Source of the DNA: an uncultured Gammaproteobacteria bacterium
GTDB taxonomy: Bacteria; Pseudomonadota; Gammaproteobacteria; Steroidobacterales; Rariloculaceae
Direction: 5' to 3'
NCBI GenBank assembly: GCA_963742115.1
Contig: CAVUKQ010000015.1
Coordinates: 113,832 to 177,831 of the forward strand
DNA length: 64,000 bases
Part shown: in pieces, positions 1 through 64,000 of the stretch
Numbering within the stretch: the first letter of the stretch is position 1
Layout of the letters: each line of letters opens with the position of its first letter
Notes under the pieces: model-generated
Seen by the model: the letters and a program-made list of their open reading frames with translations, nothing else
The model's database searches: none
Told to the model about the DNA's origin: nothing
Position numbers and translations under genes: made by a program

Positions 1-145
1 CACGAACAACGATTCCATGCGAGACGTCGCGGCCCGATCGTGGGCGGTGACCGACTCGACGATTCTGTCTCCCGACGGCGCGGCTCGTGAGCGTACGGCC
101 GCAGTCGAACGTCAACGAATACGAACAACAAGACAGGAGACAGTC

Positions 146-634
146 ATGCCCAAGCTCATCGCACTCGCCGTATCGGTCGGCGTGCTGGCAGTGCTCGCGA
201 CTTGGATCTTCTTTCTCGAGCCCGTGGCCGCGGCTCACCTACAGGTTTGGCAAGCGTTCATCGCTTGGGGCTGCCACTATCACTCGGGCGGCAAGTTCAC
301 CGGCACTCGCAACACGATCGTCTGCATGAGCTTCGGCGCGGTCGTCGGAATGGCGGCGGTGCTGCTCGCCGCGCACCTCGGCGCGCTCGGAGCCTTTGCC
401 GCGCCCGTCGCGGTCGGCCTTGGCGCCGCGGTGATCGTGCTGTCGTCGCAGATCCCGCTGCTCGCGACGATCCCCGCGAGCGTCTACGGCTTCGCGAGCA
501 TCGCTGGGCTGATCCTGCTCGGGCAGGGAATGACCGCGACCACGTCGCTGCTGCCGACGATCCTGTCGGTGATCATCGGCGCGGTGTTCGGCTTCGTATC
601 GGAAGCGGTGGCAGGCGCGCTCGCGAAGAAGTAG
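146..634 (+). CDS. DUF1097-like inner membrane protein (YcdZ-like)
   Basis: ATG at 146 preceded by AGGAGA (135-140). The translation has four or five hydrophobic helices and resembles E. coli YcdZ/DUF1097 (WGCHYHSGGK..., GLILLGQG). Confidence 0.55.
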   Translation: MPKLIALAVSVGVLAVLATWIFFLEPVAAAHLQVWQAFIAWGCHYHSGGKFTGTRNTIVCMSFGAVVGMAAVLLAAHLGALGAFAAPVAVGLGAAVIVLSSQIPLLATIPASVYGFASIAGLILLGQGMTATTSLLPTILSVIIGAVFGFVSEAVAGALAKK

Positions 635-739
635 CGCTCCGACTTCGACTAGCCGGGCGCCGCTCGCGCCGCTTATCGGCGGCGCTCGTCGGGCGGGCTC
701 TTCCGCACGAACGGACGCGCGAGAACGCCGAACGGCCCG

Positions 740-60200: not shown

Positions 60201-61509
60201 ACGCCTGAATGCCCAAACGGTGCAGCGTCGGCGCGCGGTTCAGCATCACCGGGTGCTCGCGGATCACCTGTTCGAGGATGTCCCAGACTTCCGGACCTTC
60301 GCGTTCGACCAGGCGCTTCGCGGCCTTGATGGTCGTGGCCTCGCCGCGCAACTGGAGCTTCGAGAAGATGAACGGCTTGAAGAGCTCGAGCGCGAGCTTC
60401 TTCGGCAGACCGCATTGATGCAATTTCAGGGTGGGACCGACGACAATCACGGAACGGCCGGAGTAATCGACGCGCTTGCCGAGCAGGTTCTGTCTGAACC
60501 GGCCCTGCTTGCCTTTGATCATGTCCGCGAGCGACTTGAGCGGGCGCTTGTTCGTGCCCGTGATCGCACGGCCGCGACGGCCGTTGTCGAGCAGCGCGTC
60601 CACCGACTCCTGCAGCATCCGCTTCTCGTTGCGCACGATGATGTCGGGCGCGTTGAGCTCGAGCAGGCGGCGCAGGCGGTTGTTGCGGTTGATCACACGG
60701 CGATAGAGGTCGTTCAGGTCCGACGTCGCGAACCGGCCGCCGTCGAGCGGCACGAGCGGACGCAGGTCCGGCGGCAGCACGGGCAGCACCGTCATGACCA
60801 TCCACTCGGGCTTGTTGTTCGACTCGAGGAACGACTCGAGCAGCTTCAGCCGCTTCGACAAGCGCTTGATCTTGGTCTCGGAGTTCGTGCCCGAGATGTC
60901 GTCACGGACCTTGTTGACCTCGATGTCGAGGTTCATCGCGGCGAGCAGGTCGCGCACGGCCTCGGCGCCCATCCGGGCGTCGAACTCGTCGCCGTACTGC
61001 TCGATCGCCTCGAGGTACGCCTCATCGCTCAAGAGCTGGCCGCGTTGCAGCGGCGTCATGCCCGCGTCGACGACGACGAACGCTTCGAAGTAGAGGATCC
61101 GCTCGATCTCGCGCAGCGTCATGTCGAGCATGAGGCCGATGCGCGACGGCAGCGACTTGAGGAACCAGATGTGCGCGACCGGGCTCGCGAGCTCGATGTG
61201 ACCCATGCGCTCGCGGCGCACCTTGGTCTGCGTGACTTCCACGCCGCACTTCTCGCAGACGACGCCGCGGTGCTTCAAGCGCTTGTACTTGCCGCACAAG
61301 CACTCGTAGTCCTTGATCGGCCCGAAGATCTTCGCGCAGAAGAGGCCATCGCGTTCCGGCTTGAACGTCCGGTAGTTGATGGTTTCCGGCTTCTTGACCT
61401 CGCCGTACGACCACGAGCGGATCATGTCGGGCGACGCGAGCCCGATCTTGATCAGGTCGAAGTCCTCGACCGCGTTCTGCTGCTTGAACAGTCTCAGTAG
61501 ATCTTTCAT
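57250..61509 (-). CDS. rpoC: DNA-directed RNA polymerase subunit beta' with Ala/Glu-rich C-terminal tail
   Basis: [11 protein letters not shown]... and NADFDGDQM. About 1419 aa. Confidence 0.98.
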
Positions 61510-61571
61510 TCCGTGCACCTACGCCTAAGTGTTTTCGATCGCGCTCAACGGACCACCGACCCCAGCCGACG

Positions 61572-64000
61572 CTAGTCGGCCGTGTCGAGCTCGATGTTGA
61601 TAGCGAGCGACCGAATTTCCTTGACCAACACGTTGAACGACTCGGGCATGCCGGCCTGCATCTCGTGCGTGCCGTCGACGATGTTTTTGTACATCTTCGT
61701 GCGGCCCTGCACGTCGTCCGACTTGACCGTGAGCATTTCCTGCAGCGTGTACGCCGCGCCGTACGCCTCGAGAGCCCAGACTTCCATCTCGCCGAAGCGC
61801 TGACCGCCGAACTGCGCCTTGCCGCCGAGCGGCTGCTGCGTGACCAAGCTGTACGGGCCCGTCGAGCGCGCGTGCATCTTGTCGTCGACCAAGTGGTTGA
61901 GCTTCAGCATGTACATGTAGCCGACGGTGACTGGACGATCGAAGCGGTCACCCGTCCGGCCGTCGTACAACGTCGTCTGGCCAGACTCCGGCAAGTCGGC
62001 GAGCTTGAGAAGATGCTTGATCTCCTCCTCGTTCGCGCCGTCGAACACCGGGGTCGCGATCGGCACGCCGTCGCTCAAGTTCACCGCGAGCTCCGACAGC
62101 TCGTCGTCGGTCAACGACCCGATGTCTTCCTTCTGCCCGCCCGTCTGGTTGTAGATCTTGTCGATGAACGTGCGCAGCTCCTTGACGTTGCTGCCGACAC
62201 GGATCATCTCGCCGATCTTGAGCCCGAGCCCCTTCGCGGCCCAGCCGAGATGGGTTTCGAGCACCTGACCGACGTTCATGCGCGACGGCACGCCGAGCGG
62301 GTTCAGCACGATGTCGACCGGAGTGCCGTCCGCCGCGTACGGCATGTCTTCCACCGGCACGATCGTCGAGATCACGCCCTTGTTGCCGTGGCGGCCCGCC
62401 ATCTTGTCGCCCGGTTGCACGCGGCGCTTCACGGCGAGATAGACCTTCACCATCTTCAAGACGCCGGGAGCGAGGTCATCGCCCGCGGTGATCTTCGTCT
62501 TCTTCTCCTCGAAGCGACGATCGAACTGCTCTTTCTGCGAGCGCAGCCGCTCGGCGGCCTGCTCGAGCAGCGCGGTCGCGTCGTCCGCTTTCACGCGGAC
62601 TTGGAACCACTGCTCGCGCGGCAGCGCGTCCAGGTACTGTTTCGTGATCTTCGAGCCCGCGGCCAGGCCTTCCGGACCGCCCGACGCAACCTTGCCGATC
62701 AGCGAGTTCTGGATGCGCTGATAGATGTCGTCCTCGAGGATGCGCTGCTGGTCGCCCAAGTCCTTGCGAACCGACTCGAGCTCCTGCCGCTCGATCGATA
62801 GCGCGCGGCCGTCCTTCTCGACGCCGTCACGCGTGAAGACGCGGACATCGATAACGGTGCCGTCCATGCCGGGCGGCACGCGCAGCGAGGTGTCCTTCAC
62901 GTCGGACGCCTTCTCGCCGAAGATCGCGCGAAGCAGCTTCTCTTCCGGCGTGAGCTGGGTCTCGCCTTTCGGCGTGACCTTGCCGACCAAGATATCGCCC
63001 GCGCCGACTTCTGCGCCGATGAACGCGATGCCCGACTCGTCGAGCTTGGTGAGCGCGGCGTCACCGACGTTCGGAATGTCCGCCGTGACCTCTTCGGGCC
63101 CAAGCTTGGTATCGCGCGCGACGCAAGTCAGCTCTTCGATATGGATCGTGGTGAAACGATCCTCGATGACCACGCGCTCCGAGATCAGAATCGAGTCCTC
63201 GAAGTTGTAGCCGTTCCACGGCATGAACGCGACGAGCAGGTTCTGGCCGAGCGCGAGCTCGCCCAAGCTCGTCGACGGGCCGTCCGCGAGAACGTCGCCC
63301 TTCTCGATCGCGTTGCCGGCTTTCACCAGCGGCCGCTGATTGATACAGGTGTTCTGGTTCGAGCGCGTGTACTTCGTGAGGTTGTAGATGTCGACGCCCG
63401 CCTCGCCCGCTTTCGTCTCCTCGTCCTTCACGCGGACCACGATGCGCGACGCGTCGACCAAGTCGACGATGCCGCCGCGGCGTGCGACCACGGTGACGCC
63501 CGAGTCGACCGCCACCGCGCGCTCCATGCCCGTGCCGACGAGCGGCGTCTGGGTGCGGAGCGTCGGAACCGCTTGGCGCTGCATGTTCGAGCCCATCAAC
63601 GCGCGGTTCGCGTCGTCGTGCTCGAGGAACGGGATCAGCGACGCTGCGACCGACACGATCTGCTTCGGCGACACGTCCATGTACTGGACCTGATCAGCCG
63701 TGAGCAGCGCGAACTCGTTCTGATGGCGGCACGACACGAGGTCGTCCGTGAACTCGCCCTTCGCGCTCAAGGTCGCGTTCGCCTGCGCGATCACGTACTG
63801 GCCTTCTTCGATCGCCGAGAGGTAATCGATGTCGGCCGTGACCTTACCGTCCGCAACGCGGCGGTACGGCGTCTCGAGGAAGCCGTATTCGTTCGTGCGC
63901 GCGTACACGGACAGCGAGTTGATCAGACCGATATTCGGACCTTCCGGCGTCTCGATCGGGCACACGCGGCCGTAATGCGTCGGATGCACGTCGCGGACTT
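61572..64000 (-). CDS. rpoB: DNA-directed RNA polymerase subunit beta (C-terminal about 809 aa; 5' end lies beyond the window)
   Basis: ...[25 protein letters not shown]...[32 protein letters not shown]... Confidence 0.98.

Follow-up and report, generated by a model that had tools for sequence, protein, structure and literature searches.

Frame breaks outside the core genes

When a bacterial sequence shows many broken genes at once, does it record a burst of gene loss or the way in which the sequence was put together? This question is raised by a 64-kb stretch of DNA (the window, meaning the whole stretch analyzed) from a gammaproteobacterium abundant in soil. We found 18 frame breaks in eight of its non-core genes, which include gamma-glutamyltranspeptidase (GGT), a thiamine pyrophosphate (TPP)-dependent enzyme resembling acetolactate synthase (ALS) and two TonB-dependent receptors (TBDR-1 and TBDR-2), and none in the 25.3 kb of core genes (Table 1). 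The initial annotation had listed at least 17 breaks in eight accessory genes; all eight genes and their individual counts were reproduced. Deleting the listed bases restores all eight genes to full length, and the repaired genes are without internal stops.

The absence of breaks from approximately 25 kb of core sequence, also reported initially, is confirmed by a frame map, protein profiles and alignment with a sister species. A codon-usage Viterbi path through the six frames switches frame on the same strand within the named genes and never within core genes. Each of the ten largest core proteins aligns with its NCBIfam profile as a single match, nine of them end to end and rpoB, which is truncated by the window edge, to its C-terminus. 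From ribosomal protein L17 to L15 the window aligns with the sister-species genome L001 in single high-scoring segment pairs (HSPs) of 94–99.5 % identity, and JGI contigs L031–L036 display no private indels over 28.1–33.4 kb. The core at 33.4–47.8 kb and 57.3–64 kb was checked through the integrity of open reading frames (ORFs) and profiles only.

Independent copies of the same population

We compared the window with contigs from JGI, ENA and Logan retrieved at 97.6–99.6 % identity. Retrieval by exact protein gave matches for a 295-amino acid (aa) helix-turn-helix (HTH) regulator and a LanC-like protein, and zero matches for tryptophanyl-tRNA synthetase (TrpRS, with two start choices), the 298-aa start of the HTH protein and a PEMT-like protein. 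Two sets of contigs carry most of the comparison. Contigs X1–X5 derive from five independent soil or rhizosphere metagenome runs (Illumina), and the sites covered differ by run. Contigs L117–L125 are nine contigs with an identical HTH regulator; together with L126–L128 they are 97.6–99.1 % identical to the window.

At each frame break the window has one base more than the contigs (two more in the tail of the glyoxalase gene), in agreement with the insertion-like behavior attributed to all breaks at the outset. The events are not confined to genes, as had been assumed: five further private extra bases are intergenic (12958, 13138, 18386, 25170 and 54467). All 23 extra bases are missing from every covering X1–X5 contig and, over 10.2–25.8 kb, from every covering L117–L128 contig; of the 13 retrieved contigs (97.6–99.1 % identity) with coverage of such sites, not one carries any of the events. 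The sister-species genome also does without the extra bases over 12–35 kb. L126 and L127 are both 98.66 % identical to the window over 8.2 kb. In L126 we count 103 substitutions and seven indels, and all seven are single bases extra in the window; L127 displays the same seven indels plus one natural T at 18067. Jointly, L117–L125 encode an intact TBDR (1070 aa), TPP enzyme (570 aa) and glyoxalase (417–420 aa), each without the extra bases at the sites covered. No independent copy of this soil bacterium has the extra bases, which almost certainly makes them errors of assembly.

Spectrum of the events

The spectrum of the events points in the same direction. The private indels comprise 23 insertions and not one unambiguous deletion (sign test at equal odds, p = 2.4e-7). 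The chief biological alternative is genuine and recent pseudogenization, in which the strain itself carries the insertions and has lost eight dispensable genes, frameshifts in the core being lethal. Such a history should leave the opposite bias, since spontaneous bacterial indels are deletion-biased, as Mira, Ochman and Moran reportedly found in 2001. Slippage frameshifts, moreover, occur in homopolymers, and the events lie mostly outside them: approximately nine of the 23 extend a run of at least two bases, which is about the random expectation at this base composition, and only two give a run of four, the longest run involved (4 nucleotides, nt). Three breaks had initially been placed in short homopolymers. 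The site at 10944–10947 is correct, but the contigs put the other two at 9575 and 24802, outside the ccc and ggg runs. Neither GC content nor, by eye, sequence motifs suggest a local cause at the sites.

The private events are also blind to coding function in a manner that natural variation is not. They comprise 18 coding, frame-breaking events (78 %) and five non-coding ones, whereas the natural indels are all non-coding or multiples of three (Fisher p = 1e-6); the latter are found at 12798–800, 12835, 14075, 14281, 14311, 16563 (9 nt), 18067, 28107–10, 30130, 31176, 54707 (6 nt) and 54734 (3 nt). Position 14311 was considered as a sixth intergenic event and rejected, being a natural T-run polymorphism common to three contigs.

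Insertions are the only class of difference that sets the affected sequence apart. A stretch with insertions (4016 columns covered by at least five contigs) contains nine private substitutions and four private insertions, and an insertion-free stretch (2628 columns) contains five and zero, respectively. Private substitutions thus occur at approximately 2 per kb in both measured stretches. The ratio of private indels to private substitutions, approximately 0.4 where it was measured, exceeds by an order of magnitude the ratio of approximately 0.03 among natural contigs, which is difficult to reconcile with pseudogenization. So is the presence of five events in the single 1.65-kb GGT gene, whose other differences are still dominated by third codon positions (18 of 25 after repair; 16 of 21 in ALS).

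Pseudogenization does draw some support from the data. None of the 23 events falls in the 25.3 kb of essential genes, as selection predicts; the stop-free segments between breaks agree with very recent events; and the source reads were not seen. On the other side, no event is common to any of the 13 contigs, the inserted base is the alternative allele of a single-nucleotide polymorphism (SNP) at some sites, and there are neither signs of relaxed selection nor other lesions. The accumulation of pseudogenes in Mycobacterium leprae or Shigella is similar in that non-essential genes are frameshifted while the core stays intact. Real genome decay, however, also proceeds through deletions, nonsense mutations and insertion sequence (IS) insertions under relaxed selection, and in the window we see +1/+2 insertions alone, substitutions of a normal pattern and nothing common to its relatives. 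We therefore regard pseudogenization as improbable. A variant of this explanation invokes a real burst of +1 insertions that do not arise by slippage, produced by a mutagenic process such as an error-prone polymerase or an intercalating agent in soil, with selection sparing the essential genes; we consider it more improbable still.

Programmed recoding, by +1 ribosomal frameshifting or transcriptional slippage, or phase variation at contingency loci would account for the shift of every break in one direction. The +1 frameshifting of prfB likewise requires a +1 shift for the full protein. A programmed frameshift site, however, is single, conserved in orthologues and marked by a defined motif, and the window breaks have none of these features. 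Population contigs have unbroken orthologues, and so does the sister species L001 for ALS and GGT, the comparison with sister genomes being one that the initial annotation had itself proposed. No common slippery motif or repeat tract is present at the sites, a single gene contains up to five shifts, and extra bases occur in intergenic DNA as well. Recoding and phase variation can be set aside with near certainty.

Sparing of the core genes

The breaks had been described as strongly clustered, which was taken to argue against uniformly distributed error. The contrast between core and non-core DNA on which this rested is significant: zero events in 25.3 kb of core have p = 9e-6, and this is the sole strong non-uniformity. 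Among the non-core genes the clustering is not significant, and the events appear Poisson-like over 38.7 kb (2-kb bins; variance/mean 1.15, p = 0.31).

One way to produce such a contrast is to let insertion errors fall uniformly and to have the frames of conserved genes alone corrected afterwards, through a proovframe-like tool or a reference-based polisher. The clean core genes are in line with this, and tools of this kind leave genes alone unless these match a database well (10.1101/2021.08.23.457338). But GGT (Pfam E = 4e-146), the TPP enzyme (5e-52) and both TBDRs have very strong homologues and yet stay broken. Conversely, genes without a usable Pfam match (743–2158, 1812–3056 and 28121–29488) are intact, with zero indels relative to contigs. 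Proovframe pads the deletions it corrects with N (10.1101/2021.08.23.457338), and the window contains no N. A polisher working at the DNA level with related genomes is a conceivable variant, but the non-core region at 12–28 kb is also syntenic with L001 and 85–89 % identical to it. Overall, homology-guided correction has a low probability, similar to that of pseudogenization. Two of the explanations left open by the initial annotation, a wave of pseudogenization and homology-guided frame correction, are thus disfavored; the third, insertion-biased assembly errors or region-specific low read support, agrees with all the evidence.

Consensus errors as the probable source of the extra bases

Taken together, it is very likely that the 23 extra bases arose as consensus errors, and that the organism itself does not carry them. 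The window would most likely derive from a long contig (0.2–1 Mb) of a soil metagenome-assembled genome (MAG): its RpoA, HTH regulator and LanC-like protein are each found on a single contig of that size, presumably the source, and a contig of this length from soil implies long reads. The assembly was probably of low depth, from long reads or hybrid data, so that single-base insertions could survive consensus calling at approximately 0.6 per kb. Such errors would hit coding and non-coding DNA alike, and cause +1 frame breaks in genes (+2 once). The rpoBC and ribosomal-protein blocks were probably spared through better effective read support, for example if many more reads, those of related strains among them, piled up on conserved genes. 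In the Illumina runs, word depth is 160–625 at rpsL as opposed to approximately 6–10 elsewhere.

Residual indels of long-read and hybrid assemblies offer a close parallel: they are single-base, break intact genes, are blind to coding function and are missing from short-read assemblies, and their removal restores full-length ORFs. Gene-splitting indels have motivated tools such as proovframe (10.1101/2021.08.23.457338) and have been noted for low-coverage Nanopore MAGs (PMC12313526, PMC9262707). The insertion-only, non-homopolymer profile resembles PacBio continuous long read (CLR) chemistry, but could equally stem from a mixed-strain consensus. Raw PacBio CLR errors include approximately 8 % insertions and 3 % deletions, and polished long-read assemblies retain frameshifts (10.1101/2021.08.23.457338). 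The catalogue from which L001 originates was assembled from Nanopore reads only, with Flye and Medaka, and reports sequencing errors in low-coverage MAGs (PMC12313526).

Several observations weigh against consensus errors as the source. Residual Nanopore errors are typically homopolymer deletions, whereas the window events are all insertions and mostly non-homopolymer, so the events do not identify a platform. No Nanopore-labelled run contains the searched window stretch. No public run with insertion-spanning words was found for the three words sampled, and for a 9.9-kb stretch (19600–29500) no run contains more than 63 % of the words; we thus infer, and have not seen, that the source DNA lacks the extra bases. 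The sparing of the core would be predicted equally by purifying selection acting on real mutations. The inserted base, read on the plus strand, is C in approximately 15 cases and G in approximately four (p = 0.02) regardless of the strand of the gene hit, a skew that is unexplained; as a bias of the contig strand, it fits a technical origin.

Some of the insertions may have arisen by the merging of reads from co-occurring strains into one consensus, as hinted by sites where the window appears to contain both population alleles. At 14488/9 the window reads TCGC, as against TCC or TCG (both Ser) in the population; at 54850/1 it reads AG, the two population alleles being A and G. Similar union patterns are found at 23523/7 and 54827/9, and at 24802 CTGA stands in the window as against CTA in the contigs and CTG in the sister species. 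The both-alleles pattern is limited to four or five of the 23 sites, which is not clearly above chance and counts against the technical account as well; a nearby SNP is expected by chance at approximately two of 13 sites. The inserted base could mimic a synonymous SNP allele at eight of 16 coding sites, which is near chance by an estimate made without simulation.

The broken genes and their surroundings

Positions of the affected genes, core blocks and intergenic extra bases are collected in Table 1.

Table 1. Genes with frame breaks, core blocks and intergenic extra bases in the window
Feature	Position	Strand	Frame breaks	Extra bases	Repaired product or remarks
Ankyrin-repeat protein	3057..4731	-	1	4196	557 aa
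TonB-dependent receptor 1 (TBDR-1)	9516..12730	-	2	10944 (TTT to TTTT), 9575	1070 aa, C-terminus ...AVSF
TPP-dependent enzyme, acetolactate-synthase-like (ALS)	14369..16083	+	2	14488/9, 15438	570 aa
Glyoxalase/VOC protein, Lys/Ala/Pro-rich tail	16187..17400	-	1 (2 nt, in tail)	16599-16600	403 aa
Gamma-glutamyltranspeptidase (GGT)	23378..25035	-	5	24802, 24771, 23860, 23794, 23523/7	550 aa
Secreted Ala-rich protein (earlier 'TPR/TonB_C')	48901..50499	-	3	50312, 49871, 49651	531 aa
TonB-dependent receptor 2 (TBDR-2)	50648..54251	-	1	54045, near N-terminus	1200 aa, C-terminus ...TMDF
Small secreted protein	54473..55102	-	3	54850/1, 54827/9, 54638	208 aa
L17, rpoA, secY, ribosomal-protein genes, tuf, fusA, rpsG, rpsL (core block)	29608..48194	-	0		
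rpoC and 3' part of rpoB	57253..64000	-	0		NCBIfam profile match in one stretch each; rpoC end to end, rpoB to C-terminus
Private extra C	12958			C	Intergenic, upstream of HTH regulator gene (start 13186); missing in 9/9 contigs, 4/4 runs
Private extra C	13138			C	Intergenic, 48 nt upstream of HTH regulator start; missing in 9/9 contigs
Extra C	18386			C	12 nt upstream of small PLDc_N membrane protein (start 18374); contig comparison
Private extra C	25170			C	Divergent intergenic region between GGT and PepQ-like peptidase genes; contig comparison
Extra A	54467			A (AAA to AAAA)	Spacer from small-protein stop to TBDR-2 start; contig comparison

The GGT gene is the most heavily affected. A tblastn search with the intact ORF of L001 recovers it in frames -2, -1, -2, -3 and -1, a sixth short piece being too small for an HSP of its own. 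Repaired GGT matches Pfam G_glu_transpept over 2-512 of 512 positions, and its 1653 nt are exactly the length of the orthologue in L126; both L126 and L127 encode an intact 550-aa GGT. The best full-length match of the repaired protein in a protein search is 84 % identical, which indicates that intact GGTs are the norm. A metagenome scan with the same protein returned full-length relatives at no more than 70 % identity, too distant to represent population haplotypes. By tblastn, ALS lies in frames +2, +3 and +1 of the window, and the contigs lack its extra bases. Once repaired, ALS has complete TPP_enzyme N, M and C domains and a length of 1713 nt, exactly that of the L117 orthologue.

In both TBDR genes the repair restores a recognizable receptor. 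The Plug and barrel domains of TBDR-1 are found by Pfam in separate frames; the contigs are without both extra bases, and the metagenome orthologues are called as 1070 aa. For TBDR-2, the X3 and X5 contigs lack base 54045, and the repaired protein has Plug and barrel domains. Both repaired receptors end in Phe, the usual C-terminal residue. Their N-terminal regions are paralogous: 53598–54050 of TBDR-2 and 12130–12590 of TBDR-1 share approximately 70 % nucleotide identity, as seen via the TBDR-1 metagenome contigs.

The Ank matches of the ankyrin-repeat gene are split by Pfam over two frames, and the X3 and X4 contigs are one base shorter at 4196. The GT at 16599–16600 of the glyoxalase gene is missing in all four runs and all four contigs compared; Pfam finds Glyoxalase twice in the protein. 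The tail of this protein (16187–16650) comprises approximately 150 aa, is rich in Lys, Ala and Pro in the manner of histone H1, and differs in length between population members while keeping the frame (L120 and X2 have a 9-nt indel at 16563). The label TPR/TonB_C, given earlier to the protein that we list as secreted and Ala-rich, does not hold, as Pfam returned zero matches for it. Two sites of the small secreted protein, 54850/1 and 54827/9, rest on contigs of only approximately 95 % identity.

The intergenic extra C at 18386 lies in a SNP-rich non-coding spot and could be a natural change. Two further intergenic sites display natural variation. At 12796–12802 the contigs have an ACG-repeat polymorphism, CATG-ACG-ACC or CATG-ACG-ACG-ACC, and the window reads CATGACACGACC, an intermediate present in no contig; relative to the long allele it is a 1-nt deletion, and it may be another consensus artefact. 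At 14275–14320 a bidirectional terminator hairpin, AAAACCCCCGCCGG...CCGGCGGGGGTTTT, has A-run and T-run lengths that vary naturally among population contigs.

The window as a whole has a G+C content of approximately 66 %, no tRNA genes and genes mostly on the minus strand. Its ribosomal cluster follows the order rpsL-rpsG-fusA-tuf-S10-spc-alpha, down to L17. The non-core DNA consists of positions 1–29607 (29.6 kb) and an island of approximately 9 kb at 48.2–57.2 kb. The genes rpsL and rpoC are usually adjacent or almost so; here they are separated by the island (48195–57252), which includes TBDR-2, the Ala-rich and the small secreted proteins and an M48 peptidase. A 456-aa gene without a usable Pfam match (28106–29526) adjoins rplQ (L17); it is missing from L001, present in the near-identical JGI contigs L031 and L032, and appears to be an insertion, specific to the lineage, where the alpha operon ends. 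At 4735–8552 lies an intact gene pair that encodes a DUF1552 protein (HXXSHH, TAT signal) and a protein carrying planctomycete cytochrome-type domains (DUF1587/1595/1592/1588/1585), with zero indels relative to contigs across 5.3 kb.

Among GTDB species representatives the closest genome is L001, a Nanopore MAG syntenic with the window over 12150–34592 at 85–93 % nucleotide identity; no member of the window's own species is found among these representatives. Between 30 and 63 % of the 31-mers of the window are present in many soil and rhizosphere metagenomes, which makes the organism a common one in soil.

Implications

The analysis suggests a recipe for distinguishing consensus error from decay when the source reads are not at hand: the direction of indels, their blindness to coding function, the private indel to substitution ratio and comparison with contigs that were assembled from short reads of that population. 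Should the both-alleles pattern turn out to be general, it would implicate strain mixing as a source of insertion errors in metagenome-assembled genomes. The main value of the case is as a warning. Taken at face value, the genome would be credited with eight pseudogenes, including GGT, the ALS-like enzyme and two TBDRs, and could be taken as evidence of ongoing gene loss. The eight genes are intact in the natural population of this abundant soil gammaproteobacterium, and its biology in this respect is ordinary.

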